A stretch of 38,614 nucleotides of DNA from a candidate division WOR-3 bacterium. GTDB lineage: Bacteria > Hydrothermota > Tepidihabitantia > Tepidihabitantales > Tepidihabitantaceae. Of the stretch, positions 3,244-38,084 are shown one piece after another. Within the stretch, counting starts at the first letter, position 1. Every line of letters begins with the position of its first letter. Location of the stretch: assembly GCA_039801285.1 (NCBI GenBank), contig JBDRUJ010000001.1, forward strand, positions 1-38,614, read 5' to 3'. The position numbers were made by a program, and so were the translations under genes. The notes under the pieces were generated by a model, which saw only the letters and a list, made by a program, of their open reading frames with translations, ran no database searches and had not been told where the DNA came from.

Positions 3244-4890
3244 ATGCCGGCGAAGGACCTGAAGTTTGAAGACGAAGCACGACGGGCGATTCTGCGCGGT
3301 GCCGAGAAGCTGGCCCACGCGGTGAAGGTGACCCTGGGGCCGAGGGGCCACAATGTCATCATTGACAAGAAGTGGGGTGCCCCGACCGTAACCAAGGATG
3401 GTGTTACGGTTGCCAAGGAGATCGAGCTTGACGACAAGTTCGAGAATATGGGCGCCCAGATGATCAAGGAGGTGGCCTCCAAGACCTCGGATGTGGCTGG
3501 TGACGGCACCACGACGGCCACGATTCTGGCCGAGTCCATCTACCGCGAAGGGCTGAAGAACGTCACCGCCGGTGCCAACTCGATGGCGCTGAAGCGGGGG
3601 ATTGACAAGGCGGTCGAGGTAGCGGTAAGTGAGCTGAAGAAGCTGGCAAAGAAGACCACCGGCCGCGAGGAGATCATGCAGGTTGCCACCATCTCCGCCA
3701 ACAACGACAAGGAGATTGGCAAGCTGATTGCCGATGCGATGGAGAAGGTGGGCAAGGAAGGGGTCATCACCGTCGAGGAGGCGAAGTCCATCGAAACCAC
3801 CCTTGAGGTGGTGGAAGGGATGCAGTTCGACCGCGGCTACCTTTCGCCCTATTTCGCCCTTGAGCCGGGCACGACCACTCCTCAGAACCAGAAGATGGAG
3901 GCGATTCTCGAGGATACGCTGGTGCTGCTCTATGAGAAGAAGATATCCTCGATGCGCGACCTGTTGCCGGTTCTGGAGAAGGTGGCACAGCGCGGCCGGC
4001 CGATTCTGGTGATTGCCGAAGAGGTCGAGGGCGAGGCGCTGGCCGGTCTGGTGGTCAACCACATCAAGGGCACCCTGCGCTGCTGCGCGGTGAAGGCCCC
4101 CGGCTATGGCGACCGGCGAAGGGCGATGCTTGAGGACATCGCCGTCCTTACCGGTGGCCGGCTCATCTCTGAAGACCTCGGCATCAAGTTGGAGAACGTC
4201 CAGATTTCGGACATGGGCGTTGCCAAGCGGGTGGTGGTTGACAAGGAGAACACCACGATTGTCGAGGGCGCGGGCAAGAAGGCGGACATCCAGGCACGGA
4301 TTGAGCAGATTCGGAAGCAGATTGAGGAGACCAAGTCCGACTACGACCGCGAGAAGCTGCAGGAGCGGCTGGCCAAACTCGCCGGTGGTGTTGCCGTCAT
4401 CCATGTCGGCGCGGCGACCGAGGTCGAGATGAAGGCGAAGAAGGCCCTGGTGGAGGATGCGCTCCATGCGACCCGGGCCGCCGTGGAAGAGGGCGTGGTT
4501 CCGGGCGGCGGCGTGGCGCTGGTGCGCTGCATCCCGGCAATCGAGAAGATGAAGCTCGAGGGCGATGAACAGATTGGGGCCAACATCGTCCGCCGGGCGC
4601 TCGAGGAGCCGATTCGGCAGTTGGCCGAGAACGCCGGGGTTGACGGCTCAATCGTCTTCGAGAAGGTCAAGGCCGAAAAAGGGAACATCGGCTTCAACTG
4701 CGAGACCCTGCAGTTTGAGGATATGTTCCAGTCGGGTGTGATTGACCCGACCAAGGTCGTGCGGGTGGCCTTGCAGAATGCGGCGAGCGTTGCCGGGCTG
4801 ATGGTCACCACCGAGTGCGCCATCACCGAGCTGCCGGAGAAGGAAAAGACCCCACCTGTTCCTGGTGGCGGCTACGGCGGCGAATACTGA
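3244..4890 (+). CDS. groEL: Chaperonin GroEL
   Basis: 548-aa ORF with GroEL hallmarks ([25 protein letters not shown]) and a Gly-rich C-terminus. Confidence 0.98.
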
Positions 4891-7485: not shown

Positions 7486-9249
7486 TCAGGGAATTATGAA
7501 TTCGCAGTAAAAGGTCTCGTCCGGTGACTCTAAAAGGGTAACTGCCACCACTCCTGATTCGTTTTTCCTCAAGATGTGGTACTTTGCCTCTTTACCCAGA
7601 AAATGACGTGGCAGGACAAACCTTCGGATTCTTTTGTCCTCAAGGTTCAGCCGGCAAACTACCGGCCAGCCTTCTTCAAGAAGTAGAACATAGCAAAGGT
7701 CCCGGGTGATAAGAAAGTCAACAATTCGTTGCCTAAAGTTGGCCCTGAAAGTTTCAAGTAGATAGCGCAACGGCTCCTTTGACCGGTCAATAGCAGGAAT
7801 TATCGGTGGGGGATTCTCGAAGACAGTAATTGAATCAGTCAGGACCAAATCCTGATTGTAGATGTGTATCTTTCCAGAGTACCTGTCGCTTGAATAATAA
7901 ACGCCACCGGAAATCCTCACGAATCCTTCGGACACAAGGTAGCCCAGCTTCAACTCCTCAAACCGCTTCTCCAGCCTGCCCAGAAACTGCACAAACTCGC
8001 CATCAAAGTTGAAAACAGCAAACTGATGGACATTTTGCTGGTAGAATTCGTCGGTGAACGGATTTCCCTCCTTCGCGGCGTTATCATCAAGCAACTGACT
8101 TCCTGCGGGCCAGCCCTTGTGAAACGGTAAAAAGACTTTCTGGTTTCTGGAGTCAAAGGATGCGCCGATGTGAGAGAACCCCCCAAAGACGGAGTCGGGG
8201 AACGATTGAAAGCGAGCGCAACTCATTGGCTTGTTGTCAAGAATGTGTTTCCTGATGAGGACAGGCACATTATGATACCCAAAGTTCGTGTCTTCGCCTG
8301 TTACTTCCGTTACAACCTTCGGTAAAGAGGCAGTGATTATCAATGTGGTGTCATTACAGAAATCGTGGCTGAAGTACATCGAGTTTAACACATTGTTTTG
8401 CCTTAGAATCTGGTAAACCATTACCGGCACTTTGACAAACATCATCTCTTCGCTTGAGTCAGGGAAGAGTACATTGACCAATCTGCCGGTGGCCAGGTCA
8501 AAGATGTAAATATAGTAGGTCATATGGTCCATCAATGAAAGGTAGGTACCGGAAGGGCTGACGTTTATGTAGTATGTAGTTGACAATGGATACTCTTCGG
8601 TGTCATAAAGTTTCAACATTTTCTGGCATACCGGTTTATACCTCGCTCCCTTTATCCTCGCCTTTGAGGCTGGCGCTTGTGGTCTCCTTCTGCTCTTTGG
8701 TTTGGAGAGGTCGGATATGAAAGCGGCAACGGTTGATGAATCTATTACTCCATCTGTTGAGTAAGAGGCAAGCAGTTCGCCACTTCGGACAGAGAACTTG
8801 GTGACAAAGGGCACTTCAAGAATACCGGCAGAGAGTTCAAAGGAGTTCAAAAACTTTTCATTGGTAACTATGCTGTAATCGCTTTCAAAGTTCCTTCTCT
8901 TGAGATACCTTTCTGCGGCCCGTTTTTTGTTGGACACTGCCAGAAGGATTACGTCCTCCTTCACCCCCTGCTTACGCAGGTAGTGGATAAAGGGATTGAT
9001 TGTCCCCTCAATTCTTGCCGCAACCATCGGCGGGACGATAAACACATAAATCGTATCCGATTTATAGCGGATATTCAGGCCTTTGAAGAACCGGGCAATA
9101 GTTTTATGGCTGTTCTCAATCTGATGTAGCTGGTGAAGTTTTCTTTCCCACGCTATCTGGGAAAGGCAGCATGCGAAGAGGGTTACAAGCAGAACAAAGA
9201 GCGGAAGGAGAAAACCCCTTCCGCTCCTTGACTTTGGCGACAGTGTCAC
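7486..9249 (-). CDS. Hypothetical membrane-anchored protein of the low-G+C islet; N-terminal TM helix, and the C-terminal two-thirds may be a beta-propeller
   Basis: 587-aa ORF with a GTG start overlapping the upstream stop (GTGA). The N-terminus GRGFLLPLFVLLVTLFACCL is hydrophobic. I cannot assign a family from motifs alone, and the resemblance to Bacteroidota 6-bladed propeller lipoproteins is only an impression. Base composition is clearly lower in G+C than the flanks. Confidence 0.65.
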   Translation of the reverse strand: MTLSPKSRSGRGFLLPLFVLLVTLFACCLSQIAWERKLHQLHQIENSHKTIARFFKGLNIRYKSDTIYVFIVPPMVAARIEGTINPFIHYLRKQGVKEDVILLAVSNKKRAAERYLKRRNFESDYSIVTNEKFLNSFELSAGILEVPFVTKFSVRSGELLASYSTDGVIDSSTVAAFISDLSKPKSRRRPQAPASKARIKGARYKPVCQKMLKLYDTEEYPLSTTYYINVSPSGTYLSLMDHMTYYIYIFDLATGRLVNVLFPDSSEEMMFVKVPVMVYQILRQNNVLNSMYFSHDFCNDTTLIITASLPKVVTEVTGEDTNFGYHNVPVLIRKHILDNKPMSCARFQSFPDSVFGGFSHIGASFDSRNQKVFLPFHKGWPAGSQLLDDNAAKEGNPFTDEFYQQNVHQFAVFNFDGEFVQFLGRLEKRFEELKLGYLVSEGFVRISGGVYYSSDRYSGKIHIYNQDLVLTDSITVFENPPPIIPAIDRSKEPLRYLLETFRANFRQRIVDFLITRDLCYVLLLEEGWPVVCRLNLEDKRIRRFVLPRHFLGKEAKYHILRKNESGVVAVTLLESPDETFYCEFIIP

Positions 9250-27963: not shown

Positions 27964-29019
27964 TCACCCCGTTTTGGCGAAGTGGTGATTTGCGCCAGCC
28001 TCCCGGGCCGCCGTCACAAATGCCCTGATGTTTTCGGCCGGTGTCTCAATCGGCACCTCGCAGCCGGTCGCTGCCACGAACCCTTTGGGGCAGGCTTTCC
28101 CGATTGCTGTCATCCGTCCAACATCGTCTGCCACCTCCTGTGGTGTCCCAAGCCACAGTCCGGTAGTGTCAAGATTGCCGATAATCCGGCACCGGTCTCC
28201 AACCTTGGCTATCGCTTCGGCAAGTCCGATGCGGTCAATGCTCAGAAGGTCTGCACCGCTGTCGGCCATAAGTTCAATCGGAGCGGTTGTGTCGCCGCAG
28301 ATGTGGAGAATTACATCCAGGTCGTAGCGGTGCAGGAATCTGATGACCGCCTGCTCATAGGGCAGGGCAAACTGCCGGTAGTCTTCCGGAGAGATGACAC
28401 TGCCCGATGCCAGGGGGTCAACGAGAATCGGCAGGGCACCGGCATCAATCATCGCCCGGCAGAATGTTATTACCGAGCGGGTAACAAACTCCAGCAGCCG
28501 CTTGACATCATCAGGCCTTTCCACGAGGCCTAGGAGAAATGTCTCAGGGTCAACCAGTTGCTGGGCGGTGGTGAAGGGCGCGGGGATGTAGGCGAGGATG
28601 GGCACGGTGTCGGCCCGGGCCTCATAGGCGCAGCGCGCTGCCGCCCAATAGACCGGGAGCCTGCCATCGCGCATCGGGTTGATGATACCAGCCAGCGGCT
28701 CCGAGCCGTCGGGCAACTCGCGCCACCTGGGCCGAGAGAGGACCGGCAGCTCGTCCTCAGGATATTCAAACCGGGAGCCCAGCGCCTCGGCAACGATGCC
28801 CACCTCGGAAAAGAGCGAGATGAAATCGGTTCCGAACCGCTCCTGGGCCTGGAGTTGACAGCGGGCCATCACTATGCCGTCGGTATAATAATCCCGCAGG
28901 TTGGCGCCGGTAAGACGGGCTGCGGCCGCGGTCAACAGCGGAAAGACCGGGCAGCGGTCCTGCGGCTCATCCATCACCAGAAGGCCGAACCGCTCCCTGG
29001 GGGTCAGGAGGTCCTTCAT
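27964..29019 (-). CDS. URO-D-family (MtaA/MtbA-like) corrinoid methyltransferase, paralogue 2
   Basis: 351-aa ORF with URO-D-fold length. It has the H-x-C...C zinc-ligand pattern of MtaA-type enzymes (ILHICGDTT ... VAATGCEVP). It overlaps the upstream gene by 4 nt. Confidence 0.8.
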   Translation of the reverse strand: MKDLLTPRERFGLLVMDEPQDRCPVFPLLTAAAARLTGANLRDYYTDGIVMARCQLQAQERFGTDFISLFSEVGIVAEALGSRFEYPEDELPVLSRPRWRELPDGSEPLAGIINPMRDGRLPVYWAAARCAYEARADTVPILAYIPAPFTTAQQLVDPETFLLGLVERPDDVKRLLEFVTRSVITFCRAMIDAGALPILVDPLASGSVISPEDYRQFALPYEQAVIRFLHRYDLDVILHICGDTTAPIELMADSGADLLSIDRIGLAEAIAKVGDRCRIIGNLDTTGLWLGTPQEVADDVGRMTAIGKACPKGFVAATGCEVPIETPAENIRAFVTAAREAGANHHFAKTG

Positions 29020-30416
29020 CGCCGGCTCCGGAGGAGTTCGAGAAAGGCGTCAATCCGCGTTAGGGTCTGCCGGTCAATCTCCGGCCCAGGTGCACCGACA
29101 TCAAACTCCAGAATCGGCAAATCAAGCGCCTCCCGGACATAATCGGCAATCAGCCGCGACTCCATAGCACAGTGGGAACCTCCAAAGACTCCGGAAACGA
29201 TAATGCCTTCGGCACCTTGCTCCCGTGCCTGCCTGATGACCGACTCGGCACGTTGCCGGCTTGTTCCAATCAGCGATGCGGCCATGAAGGAGCGGGCAAT
29301 TGCCCTGAGCCCCTGGGTGATGTCCGACCGGTCTGTTTTGACCGAACAGAAGTCAATCTCCGCCAATGCCTGGTTGATAACGAACTCCGTTCCCACCACC
29401 CTAGCTCCCCGGTCCTCGACATAGCACAAAAGCAGAGGGTCGGCCGGAGGCGTGACCCAGACCAGGCGCAAGGCATCTTCGGACAGAACCCTTTGACCAT
29501 GTTGAACCCGGGACCGGGCTAGCGCCAGGAGATGTGCAACAATTTCCGTCCACTCAGCAATGTCCGAATAGTAGTGCAGGTTTCCGAACTCGACAACCAT
29601 CATCTCCAGGGCGGGCAGGACACCTTGACCATAGGCCAGCTTGCGCAGTTGGGCAACCATCCGCCGCACCCGGTTGGTCCGGCTGATACCGGCAGAAAGT
29701 TCGGCAGGGGTCAACCGGTGGCCGGTCAACTCCTCAAGCCTTGCGACAACCCGGCGATACTCCTCAACCAAGAGCTCAACCGCACCGCCGTTCTGCTCCT
29801 GGCGCAACGGGGTCTCCACCCAGAGGACATCACCGACCAGCCACTCAACCAGCTGTTCGACACCCGAATAGTCGTCACAGGAGGCGCCAGTGGCGGCAAT
29901 CACCAGGTCCGGGTCGGGAAAGTAGGCGTGTTTGGCAAATGCCCCGAGCGCTGCCCGGGAGAAGCAGCTCGCCTCACCGATGCCCAGCCGGGCCGCAGCC
30001 TCGAACAGGACATTGCTCTCCATGACAAACGGTGTCCACCAGATGCAGTCGGGATAGAACGCCAGACAACCGGGAAATGAGTTGACAATCACCGGCAGGG
30101 CACCAAGGTCGCCCATCGTGGCAATCACCCGGCGGCCGGTCTGCCGGGCCCGGAAGAGCCGCTCGGTCTCGTTCTGGACAAAACCCCACATCCGCAGGCA
30201 GGCAAGGGAGTTGTCAAACTTCAGCCGGCGCAGATGCCGGGCACCGTAAAGGGCAAAGGTCTGGGGCGGGAACAGATACTTGGACCACGACTCCTGATTC
30301 GGTGGAAAATAGTGATAGCGCTCAATCAGTTCGTCGGGAATCTTCTGAAACAGTTCGCCCCACTCTTCGAATGTGACTCTTGCGGCGGGCGGGTTTTGGT
30401 AATGGGCCCGGCTCAC
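29016..30416 (-). CDS. 2-hydroxyacyl-CoA dehydratase / benzoyl-CoA reductase BcrC-BadD-HgdB family protein (large subunit-like)
   Basis: 466-aa ORF. It has the HGD-D-family pattern (RVIATMGDLGALPVIVNSFPG, conserved Cys positions ...GEASCFSRAALG..., ...ATGASCDDY...). It overlaps the upstream gene by 4 nt. Confidence 0.7.
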   Translation of the reverse strand: MSRAHYQNPPAARVTFEEWGELFQKIPDELIERYHYFPPNQESWSKYLFPPQTFALYGARHLRRLKFDNSLACLRMWGFVQNETERLFRARQTGRRVIATMGDLGALPVIVNSFPGCLAFYPDCIWWTPFVMESNVLFEAAARLGIGEASCFSRAALGAFAKHAYFPDPDLVIAATGASCDDYSGVEQLVEWLVGDVLWVETPLRQEQNGGAVELLVEEYRRVVARLEELTGHRLTPAELSAGISRTNRVRRMVAQLRKLAYGQGVLPALEMMVVEFGNLHYYSDIAEWTEIVAHLLALARSRVQHGQRVLSEDALRLVWVTPPADPLLLCYVEDRGARVVGTEFVINQALAEIDFCSVKTDRSDITQGLRAIARSFMAASLIGTSRQRAESVIRQAREQGAEGIIVSGVFGGSHCAMESRLIADYVREALDLPILEFDVGAPGPEIDRQTLTRIDAFLELLRSRR

Positions 30417-31534
30417 AGGTTCTCCAGAAAGGCCTCAATCCTTGTCCGGACCTGCTGACGATTCTCGGTGGAGTAGTCGCTATCGAGGTGGAGGACCGGA
30501 ATTCCGAGCACTGCTTTGAGTCGGGGGACCTCAAAACTCCAGGCATCACAGTAGAGCAGTGTCTTGAACACCAGCCCCTGGACCCGGCGTCTTCTGATGA
30601 GCTCATGCGCGGCCTGATAGAGACCGCTGTTGGGGCGGCGGCACATGCAGGCGGTGCGGGTGAAATAGAAGCGGGCAAGTGCCGCAAGCGGTTCATCACC
30701 GGGTATCAGGTCCGAATCGAACCAGCGCGTGCCGGTGCACCAGAGGTCGGCAACCACAAGGGCACGTTCTTCAATTGTCTCCAGAATCCACCGGTCGTCT
30801 TCGGTAACGATGCTGCCGCCCGCCATCAGCCGGGGCCGGAGGCCAACCGCCTGAGGCCTCACGGCCGAGACAAGATGCTCCAGAAGCGATGACAGCAGTT
30901 CAGCTCCGGCATTGGGGTCAAGGAGCCAGGCAACCGCGGCGATATCCAAGAGCTGACTTTGGGAAATCGGCGGATGGTCGGCATCGCGCAGGCTGTCCAG
31001 CCTTCTCAACCCTTGGCGCAGCCGGTTGAAGACCACAATCGCCTCCACCAGGCTGTTATCTGTCAGACCCGACCCGCAGAAGGACCCGAGCCAGTCGGCA
31101 AGGAGCTTCAGTTGGCGCCGGAACTCGTCGATTCTGTGAGGGAGCGGCTCGGAGGTCCTAGAGAGATACACCTGAAATGTCGGGATGGAAAGGTGATGTC
31201 CAATTACCTCCGGCAACCGGCGCATCATGTCACAGGTGTTCACCGCCACCACCGCATCAACCAGCCGGAACACCGGGTCGGATGGAAAATTGCCCAGACA
31301 GGCACGGCAGAACGGACAGGCATCGGCCCGCAAAAACCGTCTGCCGCTATCTGCCGCCTCACTTCCACCCCGCATCAGCCGGACCGGAATCGCACCGGCC
31401 GCCCGAATCAATTCAACCGGTGCGTAGAGGCAGAAGTAGCCGATGACCTTCTGCCCCCCTTCCTTCAGCTTTTGCAGCTCCTCAACCCGTGCGCTACGCA
31501 ACTGGGCAAGCCTTGCGCCAATCCTCATTGCCAT
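30413..31534 (-). CDS. 2-hydroxyacyl-CoA dehydratase family protein (second subunit-like)
   Basis: 373-aa ORF. The N-terminal KVIGYFCLYAPVELIRAAGAIPVRL is the typical HGD-D start. Cys-rich segments are ADACPFCRACLG and VNTCDMM. It overlaps the activase gene by 10 nt. Confidence 0.7.
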   Translation of the reverse strand: MAMRIGARLAQLRSARVEELQKLKEGGQKVIGYFCLYAPVELIRAAGAIPVRLMRGGSEAADSGRRFLRADACPFCRACLGNFPSDPVFRLVDAVVAVNTCDMMRRLPEVIGHHLSIPTFQVYLSRTSEPLPHRIDEFRRQLKLLADWLGSFCGSGLTDNSLVEAIVVFNRLRQGLRRLDSLRDADHPPISQSQLLDIAAVAWLLDPNAGAELLSSLLEHLVSAVRPQAVGLRPRLMAGGSIVTEDDRWILETIEERALVVADLWCTGTRWFDSDLIPGDEPLAALARFYFTRTACMCRRPNSGLYQAAHELIRRRRVQGLVFKTLLYCDAWSFEVPRLKAVLGIPVLHLDSDYSTENRQQVRTRIEAFLENL

Positions 31535-32931
31535 GGTTCCAGGTTCATCGAAGTGATAAATGCCGTCTCAAAGTCGGGATGACGGCTCAGCTCTATTTCC
31601 TGACAGCGCCGGGCAACAGACTCAGCAATCCTCAGAAGCTCACGGTTGTAGGTGGCACGAATTGCTCCGAGAAGCGCCAGGTTGGGATGCTGACGGATGA
31701 TTCTAGGCCGGACAGCGGGCAGAAGTCCAATTCTGATTGCCGATTCCGGCCTGAGGGCTGCTCCGAACCGGCCGGTAATGAACAACCTTTCGATTGCCGT
31801 TGCCGAAACGCCCCATTCCCGGAAAAGAATCCGGACCGCTGCAGCAATCGCCGCTTTGGCAAGTTGAACTTCACGGAGGTCGGCTTGAGAGAGATAGACA
31901 CCGTTCTCATTATCACGAAACAACCAGAGTCGTTTGTCATACCGCAGCCGGCCGGTGCAGTCTATTCGGCCGGTTTCCAATCCCGCGGCCACCGCATCCA
32001 GGACACCCGAGCCGCAGATTGTTGCCGGTTGACGCTTTCCGATGATATCGAGACGGAATCCGTTACGGCCTGGCCTCACCGCCGTGACCGCTCCCGGCTG
32101 TGCCAGACTGCCGCACTCCAGACTCGGCCCCTCAAATGCCGGCCCGGCCGCAGTGGAACAGACCAGCAGTCGCTCCGAATTTCCGAGGACAACTTCACCA
32201 TTGGTACCGGCGTCAACGAGAAGCGCAAGCCTCTTGCTCCGGTGCATCCCTGAGGCAAGAATTGCGGCCGTGCAGTCACTGCCAACAAAGCTGCCCAGAA
32301 GCGGAAGGACCCTGATTCGGCCTTGACGCACCATCCGCTTCAAGGGCAGTTTTGAGCGATAGGGATAATGTCCCAGACCGGCCGGACTTCGGTCAAAAAG
32401 AAAGTGAATCATCACCGTATTACCAACCACCGTTGCCGGCTCCCTCGGTGCTATTCCAACTTGGCGCATAAAACCGGTCAGGACATCCTTCACCGGCGCC
32501 GCTCTGCGAACCTTTCGTTCCCGGGCAATCCGGCTCATCACATCAAAACCGAATACAATCTGAGGATTGAGCAGTTCCCGACGCCGGACCACGCGCCGAC
32601 TGAGAACATCCACCGCTGCCAAGGAGATTGTTGTCGTGCCGATGTCGGCAGCCAGCCGGCACACGACGCCTGACGCCGGAGGCTCGACGCCCAACATTGA
32701 AAAGGGTGGGCTGCCGGCTCGGGGCCGGGAGCTGACGACCGTAACCGGTTCCACCGGAACGAACTGACAGGCGAGGACCACCCTTCTCCCATGCCGGTCC
32801 TGAATTTGAACCCGGCACCGGCCACATTTTCCCTTACCACCGCACTCCGACCGGACAACAACCCCAACCTCCGCCAGCAACTGACTCAGCCGCTTGCCAT
32901 GCTGCGGCAGGATGGTTCTGACATCCGACAT
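31525..32931 (-). CDS. Corrinoid reductive activase (RACo/RamA-type): N-terminal [2Fe-2S] ferredoxin domain plus ASKHA ATPase domain
   Basis: 468-aa ORF. CGGKGKCGRCRV...LAC is a plant-type 2Fe-2S motif. DIGTTTISLA and LLVDAGTNGEV are ASKHA phosphate-binding motifs. Its start abuts the stop of the upstream methyltransferase gene. Confidence 0.8.
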   Translation of the reverse strand: MSDVRTILPQHGKRLSQLLAEVGVVVRSECGGKGKCGRCRVQIQDRHGRRVVLACQFVPVEPVTVVSSRPRAGSPPFSMLGVEPPASGVVCRLAADIGTTTISLAAVDVLSRRVVRRRELLNPQIVFGFDVMSRIARERKVRRAAPVKDVLTGFMRQVGIAPREPATVVGNTVMIHFLFDRSPAGLGHYPYRSKLPLKRMVRQGRIRVLPLLGSFVGSDCTAAILASGMHRSKRLALLVDAGTNGEVVLGNSERLLVCSTAAGPAFEGPSLECGSLAQPGAVTAVRPGRNGFRLDIIGKRQPATICGSGVLDAVAAGLETGRIDCTGRLRYDKRLWLFRDNENGVYLSQADLREVQLAKAAIAAAVRILFREWGVSATAIERLFITGRFGAALRPESAIRIGLLPAVRPRIIRQHPNLALLGAIRATYNRELLRIAESVARRCQEIELSRHPDFETAFITSMNLEPWQ

Positions 32932-33939
32932 CTAAGCCTGCCACTCCCGCGCCACCTGAACCAGTGCCCGGACGTTTTCGGATGGCGCATCTACCGGCAC
33001 ATCACAGGCCGAAGAGAGAACGAGGCTGGGCAGCCCCCTTTTCAGACATTCATGGGCAGCAGTCCGGACCTGTTCTGGTGTTCCCTCAAGCAGCAGCGAA
33101 GTGGAAACATTACCCATCACCACCGTTTTGGGCCCGAGCCGTTTTCGAACTAGGTTCATGTCCATCTCGTCAATACTCAAAACATCGGCACCGGTCTCCC
33201 TCATCATTGGCAATATCGCTGAGCTGTCACCGCAGATGTGCAGACCGGTCCAACTCCGTTGGTGATGAATCTCTTGGACGAGCGCGGTCAAATAGGGCTC
33301 GGCAAACTCCTGGAACATCGTGGGACTGATAATACTGCCTGAGGCCATCGGGTCGCCGATAAAGGGCACGCCTCCTCTATTCACAATCGCCCTGACGAAC
33401 CGCCGTTGATTCTCCAGTGCCGCCTTAAGAAACCGGTGGGCCCGGCTGGGCTCTTCAAGCAGGTCGGTGAGAAACCGCTCGGTTCCGGCGAGAAAGGATG
33501 CCAGAGAGAAGGGGCCCTTCAGAGATGTCACAACAAAAACCTCATTGCCGACCAGTTCCTTGAGCCGCTCGGTCGCCTCCAGCACCACCGGCATCCGGCC
33601 CGAGGCCTCCGGGTCGGCCGGCTCAAGTCCTGCCTCATCAGCCGGCTCCAATAACACCGGTGCATCATCATGAGGAATTGCCACTTGGCAACCCATAGCC
33701 TCCGCCTCAACCAGGACGTCGCTGAAGACCATCACGAGGTCATAGCGATAATGTTGATAGGCAGCGAATAGAACCTGAGCCAGAACATCGGGTCTGGTCA
33801 GGGTTAGGTGCAGTGGCGTCCGGGCAAGTCGCGCGGCATGATTGGCCACCACCAGTGGAAAGACAACCGGTTGGTTTATCAGGTTGCCTTGGAGCAGGGC
33901 TGTGACTCTCTCCCTGCCGGTTCTGTCAGGAACCACCAC
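32932..33939 (-). CDS. URO-D-family (MtaA/MtbA-like) corrinoid methyltransferase, paralogue 1
   Basis: 335-aa ORF. It has the H-x-C...C zinc-ligand pattern (GLHICGDSS ... LSSACDVP). It overlaps the corrinoid-protein gene by 14 nt. Confidence 0.8.
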   Translation of the reverse strand: MVVPDRTGRERVTALLQGNLINQPVVFPLVVANHAARLARTPLHLTLTRPDVLAQVLFAAYQHYRYDLVMVFSDVLVEAEAMGCQVAIPHDDAPVLLEPADEAGLEPADPEASGRMPVVLEATERLKELVGNEVFVVTSLKGPFSLASFLAGTERFLTDLLEEPSRAHRFLKAALENQRRFVRAIVNRGGVPFIGDPMASGSIISPTMFQEFAEPYLTALVQEIHHQRSWTGLHICGDSSAILPMMRETGADVLSIDEMDMNLVRKRLGPKTVVMGNVSTSLLLEGTPEQVRTAAHECLKRGLPSLVLSSACDVPVDAPSENVRALVQVAREWQA

Positions 33940-34573
33940 CAGTCAGCCGCTCAATCTCAAGGACTGCGCCATGGGCATCGGGTGCATAGCCGTCCGCGCC
34001 GATGCGCCGGGCAAACTCTGATGTCACCGGTGCGCCACCGACAATCACCTTAACCCGTTCGCGCAGTCCCGACCGCTTCAGCGCCTCAATCACCTTCCCC
34101 ATCTTCGGCATTGTGGTGGTCATGAGTGATGAGAGCCCAATCACCCGAGTGCCCTCCTCGGCCGCCTTGACAAATGCCGCAACCGGCACATCCCGTCCGA
34201 GGTCAAGGACCTCAAACCCTGCGGCCTCGACCATAACCTTGACGATGTTCTTGCCGATGTCGTGGATGTCGCCCTGCACCACACCCAGCGCAACCCGGCC
34301 TCGGCCCCGCGGCCGGATGGTCAGCCCTTCCTTCAGGATGTCAAAGCCCGCGTACATCGCCTTGGAGGCAGCCAGAACCTGCGGCACAAAAAACTCCTTA
34401 GCCGCGAACTTCTCGCCCACCCGGCGCATGCCCATTGCCAAGCCCTGATTGATTGCCAGTTCAGCCGCTACGCCATTCTCAATGGCCTGCTGCGCGAGGC
34501 GGACAACTCGTTCAACCTTCATCTCAACAACCGCCTGCGCCAGCTGCGCCAGCAGTTCGGAACATTCCGCCAT
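33926..34573 (-). CDS. Corrinoid (cobalamin-binding) methyl-carrier protein
   Basis: 215-aa ORF with an N-terminal helical cap domain followed by a Rossmann B12-binding domain. The latter carries the base-off/His-on DxHxxG motif (VQGDIHDIGKN) and SSLMTTT...GG. Confidence 0.9.
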   Translation of the reverse strand: MAECSELLAQLAQAVVEMKVERVVRLAQQAIENGVAAELAINQGLAMGMRRVGEKFAAKEFFVPQVLAASKAMYAGFDILKEGLTIRPRGRGRVALGVVQGDIHDIGKNIVKVMVEAAGFEVLDLGRDVPVAAFVKAAEEGTRVIGLSSLMTTTMPKMGKVIEALKRSGLRERVKVIVGGAPVTSEFARRIGADGYAPDAHGAVLEIERLTGGGS

Positions 34574-34612
34574 TAAGTTATCTTACCAATTGCGCGCCGG
34601 TTGGCAACAGAA

Positions 34613-35650
34613 TCAAATCACCCGCACCACTCCGGGGCCTGACTCGACCCTGCCAACTATTGCCGCCGCCTCCACGCCTAAACTGTGCAGCCGCTCGAGA
34701 AGTCCGCCGCTCCGCTCGTCAGGGACTGAAATCAAAAGCCCGCCCGAAGTCTGGGCATCGCACAGTAGCAGCCGTTGCTCTTCGCTGACCGAAGGGGCGA
34801 AGCGGGCGCGGTCCTTCATGAACTCATAGTTCTTTATTGAGCCGCCTGGAAACAGACCCTGCGGTGCCAGCTGGAGCGCCTCGGGGATGACCGGAACCTT
34901 ACCGGCATCAATCACAACCTCCACCCTGCTGGCCTGCGCCATCTCCCAGACATGACCCAACAGGCCGAAACCGGTCACATCGGTTGCGGCATTCACCCCC
35001 ACCGCAGCCATTATCTCAGCCGCAACCCGGTTGAGACTGGTCATCACCCGGTTGGCCTGTTTGACTGCTGAAATCGGCGCCATGTCGGCGCGGGCCGCGG
35101 TGGTAATGATGCCGGTGCCGAGCGGTTTCGTTAGAATCAGCACATCCCCTGGTCTGGCTCCGGCATTGGTGACAATCCGTTCCGGATGGACCAGCCCGAC
35201 GACCGCCAGCCCACACTTCAACTCAACATCCCTGGTGGTGTGACCACCGGCAATCACTGCATCCGCCTCTCTCACCTTTTCCCAGGCACCGGCCAGAATG
35301 GTCTGGACTGTGGTGTGGGCCAGCTCGCCGACCGGGAATCCAAGAATGCAGAGTGCTGCCACCGGTCTCCCACCCATCGCATAGACATCGGAAAGGGAGT
35401 TGGCAGCGGCAACTTGACCGAAGATGAACGGGTCTTCACACACCGGTGTCAGCACATCAACGGTCAAAACCAGTGCCTCGTCCGGTCCAATCCGGAAGAC
35501 GCCGGCGTCGTCAAATGTGTCACCACCGACCAAGAGGTCGGGATGGGTAAAGGCCGGAAGCCGCTGCAGAACCTGCAGCAGGTCTGCCTGGCAGACCTTG
35601 CTTGCTCAGCCGGCGGCCTTGGCAAAGTCGAAGAGTCGGCGTCCGCTCAT
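34613..35650 (-). CDS. selD: Selenide, water dikinase (selenophosphate synthetase) SelD, selenocysteine-containing, with in-frame UGA at 35606-35608
   Basis: The ORF track starts at 35533. The same frame continues upstream through a single TGA to ATG at 35650 (RBS GAGGGGAAG): MSGRRLFDFAKAAG-U-ASKVCQADLLQVLQRLPAFTHPDLLVGGDTFDDAGVF. U aligns with Cys17 and the following K with Lys20 of the E. coli SelD motif GAGCGCK. Total length is 345 aa, typical of SelD. Confidence 0.88.
35563..35605 (-). promoter_or_regulatory. Candidate bacterial SECIS stem-loops immediately 3' of the selD UGA
   Basis: On the mRNA, UGA is followed by GCAAGCAA and then GGUCUGCCAGGCAGACC (7-bp stem, 35597-35581). Next comes GCUGCAGGUUCUGCAGC (7-bp stem, 35579-35563). 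The first loop region contains the GGUCUGC string that I recall from the E. coli fdhF SECIS apex. Confidence 0.45.
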
Positions 35651-35662
35651 AAACTTCCCCTC

Positions 35663-36256
35663 TCAGATGCGCACAACCTGCGTCCCGGACATCATGATTT
35701 CTGCCAGTTCGAACATGTTGGATACCAGGCCGATTCGGACCTGTTCCTTGAGTCCGTAGTAATCAAGACAGGTTCCGCACACGCGGATTGTTACTCCCAG
35801 TTCCTCAAGTTTCCTGAGCACATCCAAAACTGCAGAACCCTCGACTGCCAACTTGACACCACCATGAACAAGGAGAGGCTGGGACGGCCGGGGCTCCACC
35901 TCGCAAAGCGAACGGAGGAAAAGCTGCATCAGGAGCCTGCCCAGCTTCTCACTGCCCGAGCCGAATCCTTCAGAGCTAATGAGCACAACGCTGCTTGCCG
36001 GTATCCGTTGCGGCTCTTGGGATTTGCCGGGTTTGAGCTCGACCACATAGATTCCCGGCCCCGCTTCTGAATAGGACACTTCGTAGCCCCGGCTCTGGGC
36101 AAACCGGGCAATGTTGGCGCGCGCTTCCGGGCTGCCAGTAATCACCCGGACAGTCTTGCCTGGATTCGCCTCGAGGGCGGCGCGGGTGCGGACCACCGGT
36201 TCCGGACAGACCAGACCACGGACATCCACCTCTAGCGCAAGAGATTCACTATTCAT
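35663..36256 (-). CDS. yedF: YedF-like selenium metabolism protein (TusA/SirA-like domain fused to a DsrE-like domain)
   Basis: The start is chosen at ATG 36256 (MNSESLALEVDVRGLVCPEP...) because GAAGGAGG lies 5 nt upstream, and because the extra 47 N-terminal aa of the ORF-track version look non-coding. The CPxP motif of TusA-like sulfur/selenium carriers is present. The C-terminal half is DsrE-like (VVLISSEGFGSG...VRVCGTCLDYYG). Confidence 0.75.
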   Translation of the reverse strand: MNSESLALEVDVRGLVCPEPVVRTRAALEANPGKTVRVITGSPEARANIARFAQSRGYEVSYSEAGPGIYVVELKPGKSQEPQRIPASSVVLISSEGFGSGSEKLGRLLMQLFLRSLCEVEPRPSQPLLVHGGVKLAVEGSAVLDVLRKLEELGVTIRVCGTCLDYYGLKEQVRIGLVSNMFELAEIMMSGTQVVRI

Positions 36257-36551
36257 GGATGCCTCCTTCTGGAAGATAGGTGCTGACTGTATCCGGTTTG
36301 ATATTCTGACGGGCAAGAATTGTGAGTGCCGGGGCAAGTTGACTGGTATCAAGCACCAGAACTGCTCCGCATCCGGCAACTCGGCGGGGAGCGACAATCA
36401 CATCAATCCCATTTTCTCTGAGTAACTGACCAGCACAAAGGAGGGAACGGATTGTGGAGAATGAAAGTGCAGTTAGCTCTGGAACGAACGGCTCCAAGGT
36501 GTCTGCACGGGGCGAACCGCTCCGCATCACTCCATCAGTCATGTTTGCCAC
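36249..36551 (-). CDS. DUF3343-like putative Se/S carrier protein
   Basis: 100-aa ORF. The core ALSFSTIRSLLCAGQLLRENGIDVIVAPRRVAGCGAVLVL fits the DUF3343 pattern (helix, G-I, P-x-P-R-x-x-x-x-CG-x-x-L). It overlaps yedF by 8 nt. The exact start is uncertain. Confidence 0.6.
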   Translation of the reverse strand: MANMTDGVMRSGSPRADTLEPFVPELTALSFSTIRSLLCAGQLLRENGIDVIVAPRRVAGCGAVLVLDTSQLAPALTILARQNIKPDTVSTYLPEGGIHE

Positions 36552-36648: not shown

Positions 36649-37308
36649 TCATCGGACTATCACCTTCCTGACTGCCGATTCAGAACCACTGTTCATTCTG
36701 AAGAGATAGACACCGGCAGGCAGGTAGCAGAGGCCGTTCAAGCCGGGCCGCAATTCCATCACCTTGCGGCCGGAGATATCGAACAGGCAAGCGGTGACCC
36801 CATCAGACAGAAACAAAAATCGGCGCACGAAAGTTCCTTCATTCATCGTTCGGGTAGAACCGTCCATCCTTTCCTCAATCCCGGCGCCAACGATTGTGTG
36901 GGTGGCAATTGACTCAGCCAGAGCCGGGTTGCCGAGCGAGCGGACCCTGAGGCTGACAATCTCTTCGCCCTGGGTCGTGGTGGTAAAGACCGACACCTCA
37001 GGAGTGGTATCTTGAGCACCCACATCAAGGGTGTCGTACATCAGAACCCCGGGCTCGGTGCATAGGCCGCGAACACAGTAGATAACCGACCAGCCGGGAA
37101 CCGCTTGGATAACACGACAATCAAACTCATATACATCCGGCTCAGTGCCGGTGTTGGTCAGGGTGAAGTGGAAGATGGCCTCAGCCCCAGGAGAGACCCT
37201 TTGCACCGTATCCCCTCGACAATAGAAGTCGAATCCGTAGCCGGCGAATGCCAAGCCAATATCAGCAAGAAGCAGCCCACAAATCAGCACCAGTCGTTTC
37301 ATCTTCAC
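36649..37308 (-). CDS. Secreted hypothetical protein with a T9SS C-terminal sorting domain
   Basis: 219-aa ORF with a signal peptide (MKMKRLVLICGLLLADIGLAFA). The C-terminal tail is LFDISGRKV...AGVYLFRMNSG...KVIVR. Confidence 0.65.
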   Translation of the reverse strand: MKMKRLVLICGLLLADIGLAFAGYGFDFYCRGDTVQRVSPGAEAIFHFTLTNTGTEPDVYEFDCRVIQAVPGWSVIYCVRGLCTEPGVLMYDTLDVGAQDTTPEVSVFTTTTQGEEIVSLRVRSLGNPALAESIATHTIVGAGIEERMDGSTRTMNEGTFVRRFLFLSDGVTACLFDISGRKVMELRPGLNGLCYLPAGVYLFRMNSGSESAVRKVIVR

Positions 37309-38084
37309 CTCCCTGAAATAAAGTCGGTCCGGGCCGCTTGGAGCACCCGGCGGGTTCTAGGCTCTTGGACAAAGACAACCGCGTGGAGTTGCCGGGGATT
37401 CCAGAAGCCGGCCCGAACGAATTGCTCCTCTAATCTGATGGTGTCGGCACGGCTCAGCCAGATGGGACGGCCGTTGGGCCCGGGCAGAAGCGCCCGCATG
37501 ACAGAGTTGAAGACCGAATCGGTTGCTCCGCTCAGGGTGGCGCGAACACTGTCCTCAGTGATGACGACAAAGAGCCTGAGGCTCTCAGCCGGCGTTGAGT
37601 CCACACCACCGGCATCAACCGTGACGAGCCCTCCGCTTGAATCGAGCACCGCCGTGACATTGAGCTGGGCCTTTGGCGTCACGCTCCGGCTGGCCAGGAT
37701 GTAGTTGCGGAAGGTTTCGTAATTATGCTCAGGTCCGGGTGTCCTGACCACCGCACCGCCATCAAACACCGTTGCCGGCTCACCACCGGTCTCATAGTAG
37801 AGCCGGCGCCGCGCCTCAACATACTCGGGCGAGAGGGTGTCGCCGGCAATGCGGCGGTGATAGGCAATTACCACCACACTGTCCCGGAGCTCCCGCGCCA
37901 GGCTTTCAAGTGTGTGGGCCGCATAGGGACAATAGACGCAGCGCTGCCAGGTGAACAGCTCGGCCAGGACCACCCGGTTGGTCGGCACCAGCGGCACCAA
38001 AGGTGCATCCGAGCAGCCAGGGAGCCCGGCGAGGCCCAAGATGTTCAGTTGCACGATGAGCCTCACCACGCTCCTGCCGGCCAT
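37305..38084 (-). CDS. Thioredoxin-fold lipoprotein with a CxxC motif (Omp28-related/TlpA-like)
   Basis: 259-aa ORF with a lipobox-like LAGLPGCS. VVLAELFTWQRCVYCPYA is a thioredoxin-like CxxC context. It overlaps the downstream gene by 4 nt. Confidence 0.55.
   Translation of the reverse strand: MAGRSVVRLIVQLNILGLAGLPGCSDAPLVPLVPTNRVVLAELFTWQRCVYCPYAAHTLESLARELRDSVVVIAYHRRIAGDTLSPEYVEARRRLYYETGGEPATVFDGGAVVRTPGPEHNYETFRNYILASRSVTPKAQLNVTAVLDSSGGLVTVDAGGVDSTPAESLRLFVVITEDSVRATLSGATDSVFNSVMRALLPGPNGRPIWLSRADTIRLEEQFVRAGFWNPRQLHAVVFVQEPRTRRVLQAARTDFISGR

Follow-up and report, generated by a model that had tools for sequence, protein, structure and literature searches.

The window analysed here, a stretch of 38,614 nucleotides from a candidate division WOR-3 bacterium, carries on its minus strand a gene for selenophosphate synthetase, selD, with an in-frame TGA at codon 15. 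The gene lies directly downstream of yedF and 39 nt upstream of a gene for a corrinoid protein. The features discussed below are as follows:

33926–34573, minus strand: gene for a corrinoid (B12-binding) protein (TIGR02370, 203 bits), the first of a methyltransferase set
34613–35650, minus strand: selD, full-length selenophosphate synthetase of the Sec type, 345 amino acids plus stop when translated with TGA as U
35531–35533, minus strand: TTG taken as the start in the mechanical ORF call; an internal Leu codon in a conserved LLVG motif
35554–35590, minus strand: conserved hairpin, the putative SECIS, supported by covariation, RNAalifold and fit to the bSECIS model
35580–35598, minus strand: hairpin 1, 8 bp with a CAG loop, strong only in the window and in one relative (G001)
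35606–35608, minus strand: in-frame TGA, selD codon 15, read here as Sec; counterpart of Cys17 of Escherichia coli SelD, and TGA or TGY in orthologues
35654–35662, minus strand: purine-rich ribosome-binding site GAGGGGAAG, with a 3-nt spacer to the selD ATG
35663–36397, minus strand: yedF, selenium metabolism protein of TusA plus DsrE-like type (TIGR03527, 179 bits against a cut-off of 110; Pfam TusA and DsrE)

Read from the sequence, selD starts at the minus-strand ATG at 35650–35648, and its ribosome-binding site abuts the TGA stop codon of yedF (35665–35663), a gene whose own likely true start is the ATG at 36256. The N-terminal reading is MSGRRLFDFAKAAG-TGA-ASKVCQADLLQVLQRLPAFTHPDLLVGGD, and from codon 15 the frame stays open down to the stop codon of selD, which is also TGA (34615–34613). 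An earlier note on this DNA, made from the sequence alone, had described this ATG, the purine-rich ribosome-binding site, the in-frame UGA and the peptide around it, and all of these proved correct on re-reading. The same note had the ORF track begin at a Met at 35533; the position is indeed where that track starts, but the codon there is TTG, not ATG. This TTG, the second Leu of the LLVG motif, is the first possible start past the TGA, and the mechanical ORF that begins with it is 306 amino acids long. It is not the genuine start, and the 306-residue ORF is an artefact of the UGA having been taken as a stop. For annotation, the true protein is one of 345 rather than 306 residues, and the ORF call loses the catalytic loop with its Sec and Lys.

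The UGA codon in the SelD family

For scoring against family models, Cys was put in place of the TGA in the 345-residue protein. Both SelD equivalog models were passed, TIGR00476 with 363.2 bits (cut-off 125) in an alignment whose first residue, number 6, precedes the TGA, and NF002098 with 321.1 bits (cut-off 299). The best match among solved structures was E. coli SelD (3U0O, E=4e-65, residues 5–335), followed by SelD of Aquifex aeolicus (2YYE/2ZOD, E=2e-61). In the alignment to 3U0O, the segment R5-L-F-D-F-A-K-A-A-G-[U15]-A-S-K18 of the query faces R7-L-T-Q-Y-S-H-G-A-G-C17-G-C-K20, which makes U15 the counterpart of Cys17, and K18 that of Lys20; the motifs DDAGV, TVDV, SDVYAMGG and TDVTGFGL are kept. 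The proposal that the UGA occupies the Cys/Sec17 position of SelD is borne out by this alignment. Mutants of E. coli SelD at C17 and K20 have established that the loop containing Sec or Cys together with Lys is essential to catalysis. The window protein thus shares with the Cys-type E. coli enzyme its family, its domain layout over residues 5–335, the equivalents of Cys17 and Lys20 and the metal- and ATP-binding motifs, and differs from it in having UGA (Sec) where E. coli has Cys17 and in having Ser where the E. coli motif C-G-C-K has its second Cys. Compared with a Sec-type bacterial SelD such as that of A. aeolicus, nothing essential differs: both have the UGA in an N-terminal G-U-x-x-K loop, a SECIS inside the coding sequence shortly 3' of it, and a product truncated by ORF callers. 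Particular to the present case are a GUU triloop, a 9-bp stem, a distance of 33 nt from the UGA, and the presence of two Sec-type paralogues in the genome. The SelD of Haemophilus influenzae is another Sec-containing bacterial member.

When 40 related genomes were searched in six frames, 38 proved to have SelD, and in 37 there is a selD gene that contains exactly one in-frame TGA; the proteins fell into two paralogue classes, here called A and B. Type A genes encode proteins 57–70% identical to the window protein; for those with TGA the range is 60–70%. Nine other genomes have a type A gene with TGA at the same codon (G018, G022, G019, G003, G009, G004, G005, G001 and G030), and in six there is a Cys codon, TGY, in its place (G017, G015, G006, G011, G023 and G002); among the type A orthologues, Cys is the only residue by which the Sec position is replaced. 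The flanking peptide, R-L-[LI]-D-[YF]-A-[KR]-A-A-G-[U/C]-A-x-K-x-C-Q, is conserved, and the 39 codons 5' of the TTG at 35533 show conservation at the protein level across 16 orthologues. In the ten codons 5' of the Sec/Cys codon, the mean pairwise difference was 0.26 at the first, 0.13 at the second and 0.59 at the third codon position, a pattern that indicates translated sequence and that counts against a stop, a pseudogene or a one-off sequencing error. Alignment with Sec-type and Cys-type SelD sequences, which the earlier note had proposed as a check, supports its reading: the TGA codon matches the Cys of the six orthologues, and coding sequence is conserved on both sides of it. A scan of contigs with the SelD protein gave no members of the close family but only relatives of at most 55% identity in other phyla, from which 80 SelD loci were taken; the motif could be located in 67 of these, and 58 of the 67 genes have TGA at this codon. 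According to Mariotti et al., 2015 (PMC4561486), 19% of the SelD genes in a prokaryotic reference set have Sec, always at this position, and their coding sequences contain a bacterial SECIS. No bacterial selenoproteins are more widespread than FdhA and SelD (Zhang et al., 2006, PMC1794560; Peng et al., 2016, PMC5029168), Sec-type SelD being the second of the two, and SelD is ranked in this way elsewhere as well (PMC13188914).

A conserved hairpin downstream of the UGA

The earlier note had pointed to two consecutive 7-bp hairpins shortly after the UGA. Folding of this region bore out their existence: the segment 35611–35540 (72 nt) forms both hairpins side by side, with –34.8 kcal/mol for the whole and a z of –3.1 relative to dinucleotide-shuffled sequences. 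Hairpin 1 (GGUCUGC/GCAGACC) begins 8 nt past the UGA and has 8 bp in the minimum free energy fold; hairpin 2 is GCUGCAG/CUGCAGC. Only the second is conserved in orthologues, and it is this one that corresponds to the putative SECIS, while the first is not part of it.

To compare the element between genes, we used an alignment (A1) of 66 nt starting from the codon that precedes the TGA, comprising ten Sec-type genes and the Cys-type gene of G017. The alignment contains a helix with a lower stem CAGGAAG/CUUCCUG, an AC bulge, a 9-bp upper stem CUGNNGCAG/CUGCNNCAG and an apical loop GUN. Standard pairs occupy 92% of the cells of this helix, as against 21–55% after a shift of the 3' arm by 1–3 columns, compensatory changes occur at three pairs, and RNAalifold finds the identical helix unprompted. 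The support from covariation is modest, the observed score having been reached by 14 of 500 shuffles among eleven sequences that are related. In the window, the upper stem is formed by 35581–35573 with 35569–35561 (9 bp including one U·G), the apical loop GUU lies at 35572–35570, 33 nt past the UGA, the AC bulge at 35583–35582, and the lower stem, 35590–35584 with 35560–35554, has five of its seven pairs. The full element in the window has 14 of 16 pairs and a stability of –14.9 kcal/mol, compared to –18 to –24 kcal/mol in most orthologues.

The bSECIS model for bacterial elements has a loop of 3–9 nt, an upper stem of 4–16 bp and a G at loop position 1 or 2, with G or U usually next to it, at 16–37 nt from the UGA and with a minimum free energy of –7.5 kcal/mol or lower (PMC13188914). 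The window hairpin at 35581–35561 lies within every one of these limits, and it resembles the consensus used by bSECISearch in being a stem-loop 3' of the UGA, in its small apical loop that starts with G-U, and in its spacing within 16–37 nt. The prototype of the bacterial SECIS is that of E. coli fdhF. Relative to this prototype, the window element is unrelated in sequence and has no assignable bulged U; SelB is predicted to bind it. No SECIS family of Rfam matched, either in a search of the window at gathering thresholds or in a search of 35450–35700 at E<=10; Rfam has no model for this element, so that the comparison with covariance models, which the earlier note had also suggested, is uninformative.

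The upper stem is stable in all ten Sec-type genes, at –8 to –14 kcal/mol (–14.0 kcal/mol in the window), as opposed to +2 to +7 kcal/mol in five Cys-type genes (G002, G006, G011, G015 and G023). In the sixth Cys-type gene, that of G017, the upper stem is as stable as in the Sec-type genes. This gene (locus L020, G017:C238; selD codons 15–34) is nested in the tree among Sec-type genes and keeps the whole hairpin, at –22.8 kcal/mol; the hairpin is a fossil SECIS, such as Zhang et al., 2006 (PMC1794560) described, and marks a recent conversion of Sec to Cys. The other five make up the older Cys clade, which has lost the hairpin and in which the peptide DLxQVLxQLP has become DLFAxLxxxP. The comparison offers a small natural experiment, with the hairpin present wherever there is TGA, a fossil in one fresh convert to Cys, and erased in the older Cys clade.

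A separate observation concerns the codons that face each other in the stem, at 35578–35576 and 35566–35564 (A1 columns 34–36 and 46–48). These tend to change jointly at the amino-acid level: three sequences have Met (AUG) opposite His (CAU), and the other combinations are Ala (GCG) opposite Arg (CGU) and Leu (CUG) opposite either Gln (CAG) or Arg (CGG). The pattern suggests that RNA pairing shapes the protein sequence at these codons, a rule that several sequences break.

Hairpin 1 was considered as a part of the SECIS and rejected: it is not conserved, it has no G in the first two loop positions, and it lies 15 nt from the UGA where the model requires 16–37. Its stability is –12.8 kcal/mol in the window and –8.8 kcal/mol in G001, both of which have a GCA codon instead of GAA; it shows no covariation, and pair 20–26 is broken in nine of the eleven sequences. 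It shares two bases with the start of the SECIS upper stem and would compete with that stem. Hairpin 1 is lineage-specific and probably incidental, or at most a local stand-in for the weakened lower stem.

Selenocysteine machinery and the decoding of codon 15

The genome to which the window belongs (G000) is a metagenome-assembled genome (MAG) of 1.73 Mb in 203 contigs and is 70% complete. The earlier note had asked whether selA, selB and selC accompany the gene. The first two are there, both above cut-off, selA at C21:3625-4968 (588.6 bits) and selB at C74:978-2855 (386.6 bits). The third, the gene for tRNA-Sec, was found neither by Rfam nor by ARAGORN in this 70%-complete assembly: the best Rfam match (45.3 bits against a cut-off of 47) is a tRNA-Ser, and the 39 tRNAs reported by ARAGORN include neither SeC nor Asp. 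A tRNA-Sec above cut-off is present in 37 of the 40 relatives, and the genomes that lack one include a MAG of 63% completeness. The absence of selC from the assembly is best explained by incompleteness, in which case selC would lie in the unassembled 30%. Among other selenium-related genes looked for in this genome, Sec-type FdhA (TIGR01591) gave only a weak partial match without an internal stop, tRNA 2-selenouridine synthase (TIGR03167) was not found, and FlpD/MvhD (PF02662) had four matches, none of them with TGA. Sec-decoding bacteria without FdhA have been reported to have a Sec-type SelD (Zhang et al., 2006, PMC1794560), and the genome, having a Sec-type SelD and no Sec-type FdhA, agrees with this pattern.

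Elsewhere in the genome, at C75:~3425-4843 and C61:~7559-8338, both on the plus strand, lie genes for secreted proteins of thioredoxin fold (AhpC-TSA) that also have an in-frame TGA. The TGA opens the redox motif, which reads WENF-U-PTC in C75 and WRST-U-AGC in C61, and both proteins have C-terminal sorting-type domains. They are candidate extracytoplasmic selenoproteins of the UxxC kind. A genome-wide reassignment of TGA (codes 4 or 25) was also considered and can be set aside, since TGA serves as the stop codon of yedF as well as of selD and the search for tRNAs gave none with a UCA anticodon.

We consider it highly probable, from comparative sequence evidence, that UGA at codon 15 of selD encodes selenocysteine and that the gene specifies a genuine Sec-containing selenophosphate synthetase. 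In this mechanism, translation would begin at the ATG at 35650, and the UGA at codon 15 would be decoded by Sec-tRNA(Sec) brought by SelB, itself recruited by the mRNA hairpin within the coding sequence (35581–35561, comprising the upper stem and the GUU loop, 33 nt past the UGA). Sec would thereby be placed in the N-terminal flexible loop G-U-A-S-K, at the site of Cys17 in Cys-type enzymes and three residues ahead of the catalytic Lys. The insertion of Sec, the binding of SelB at the hairpin and the location of selC in the unassembled 30% are what we infer from these findings.

Three other accounts of the TGA were weighed against this one. It might be a true stop, arisen by nonsense mutation or belonging to a pseudogene, or a TGC or TGT misread in sequencing or assembly, so that the locus would hold no functional SelD or an ordinary Cys codon. 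The genome does contain a second selD, such that the window copy could in principle decay, and Cys-type orthologues exist; this account is nevertheless very improbable in view of the TGA at the identical codon in nine independently assembled orthologues, the purifying selection 5' of it, the way in which the SECIS hairpin tracks the TGA, and the other 330 codons, which are intact in a protein that passes the equivalog cut-offs. We also see very little likelihood that the UGA is read through without Sec, by near-cognate insertion of Trp or Cys stimulated by a hairpin. Such non-Sec readthrough has been proposed for insect SPS1-UGA, and stable hairpins past a UGA can stimulate it (Mariotti et al., 2015, PMC4561486); the failure to find selC in the assembly is in line with it. 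Against it stand the presence of selA and selB and of tRNA-Sec in 37 of 40 relatives, the location of the site at the catalytic Cys/Sec position, which orthologues swap for Cys only, and the match of the hairpin to a bSECIS model of the SelB type.

The last of these accounts takes the TTG at 35533 as the true start of an N-terminally truncated SelD-like protein with some other role. This is the ORF that standard callers yield, and yet the account is scarcely credible: the TTG lies within the conserved LLVG, no ribosome-binding site was noted there, the product would be without the loop of Sec or Cys and Lys, and the 39 codons upstream of it are conserved as protein in 16 orthologues.

Two selD paralogues and the yedF-selD operon

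The second selD of the genome, of type B, lies at C74:5-952 on the minus strand (locus L002:2-964) and is cut by the contig end. It is 46% identical to the window selD and has one TGA at the same position (...ATVTCAG-U-ASKLSKAQLA). The type B gene adjoins selB, 25 nt downstream of it, and the order of selB followed by type B recurs at each of the nine family-level loci examined; type A was never beside selB among the loci examined. Type B is near-universal; of the 24 other members of the family that were sampled, 15 have type A, as does one genome from a neighbouring family. The putative SECIS of type B is unlike that of type A, with a 4–5 bp stem GGCGC/GCGCN and a loop AGUUR located 22 nt past the UGA, and one of its pairs changes from G-C to A-U in a compensatory manner in three sequences. 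In a quick FastTree phylogeny, types A and B form separate, well-supported clades that are not sisters, and Cys arises twice within type A. The window selD is the accessory paralogue of two deeply diverged Sec-type copies. A literature search on two selD paralogues in one bacterium returned nothing relevant, and a pair in which each member has its own form of SECIS, and one is tied to a lineage-restricted operon of yedF and corrinoid genes, is the only mildly unusual aspect of the locus.

The operon was analysed by comparison of the window at 27964–36397 (minus strand) with loci L020, L022, L024, L025, L027, L030 and L031. yedF is found 5' of selD in nine of the ten Sec-type loci of type A. 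3' of selD, a corrinoid protein and an MtaA/CmuA-like methyltransferase are encoded in the window and in seven of the 15 other type A loci, and G017 provides an eighth such locus, in which the corrinoid protein alone is seen before the examined stretch ends. Among the 80 SelD loci of other phyla, a corrinoid gene is nearby in none and yedF in two. The linkage of yedF, selD and the corrinoid gene is conserved, yet limited to this lineage. The association of yedF with selD has been published (Lin et al., 2015, PMC5322559), and the window is like the arrangement described there in having a YedF gene (TIGR03527) immediately 5' of selD. It differs in that the operon extends to the corrinoid protein, the MtaA/CmuA-like methyltransferase, a RACo-like activase and two HGD-D genes, corrinoid genes having no mention in that paper (PMC5322559).

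The two genes of the HGD-D family (2-hydroxyglutaryl-CoA dehydratase D-component) lie in the same operon, at 29016–31534 on the minus strand. In Table 1 of Lin et al., 2015 (PMC5322559), the STRING partners given for YedF of Slackia heliotrinireducens include subunits of 2-hydroxyglutaryl-CoA dehydratase as well as a CoA-substrate-specific enzyme activase, and the association of yedF and selD with HGD-D may recur in distant bacteria. Upstream of the operon, at 37305–38084 (minus strand) and among genes for T9SS-type cargo, the window encodes an exported protein of 259 residues that contains a CVYCP motif and weakly matches DUF1223/Omp28.

The earlier note had suggested that SelD depends autocatalytically on selenium and that the operon serves selenium scavenging, both of which are reasonable inferences. 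That a Sec-type SelD depends on its own product, selenophosphate, is a consequence of its chemistry and nothing peculiar to the window gene. With regard to the operon, a supply of SelD by selenium freed through the neighbouring corrinoid methyltransferase and HGD-D genes would be compatible with the conserved linkage. A more specific proposal, which we put forward tentatively and regard as rather unlikely, is that the window selD is not the housekeeping copy but a second Sec-type paralogue, of ancient divergence and with a SECIS type of its own, which this bacterial family might have kept as the private synthetase of a selenium-salvage operon (yedF, the corrinoid methyltransferase set and HGD-D) that would demethylate methylated selenium compounds and pass the selenide directly to SelD.

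The result is a correct re-annotation within the well-known SelD family of selenoproteins; it leaves knowledge of SelD unchanged, and its added value is modest. Its main practical outcome is the corrected start of selD, a gene that automated pipelines will go on truncating in this lineage. For the organism, which is uncultivated, the finding marks it as a user of selenocysteine, in which both copies of SelD need selenium for their own synthesis, with no Cys-type back-up in the assembled 70% of the genome.
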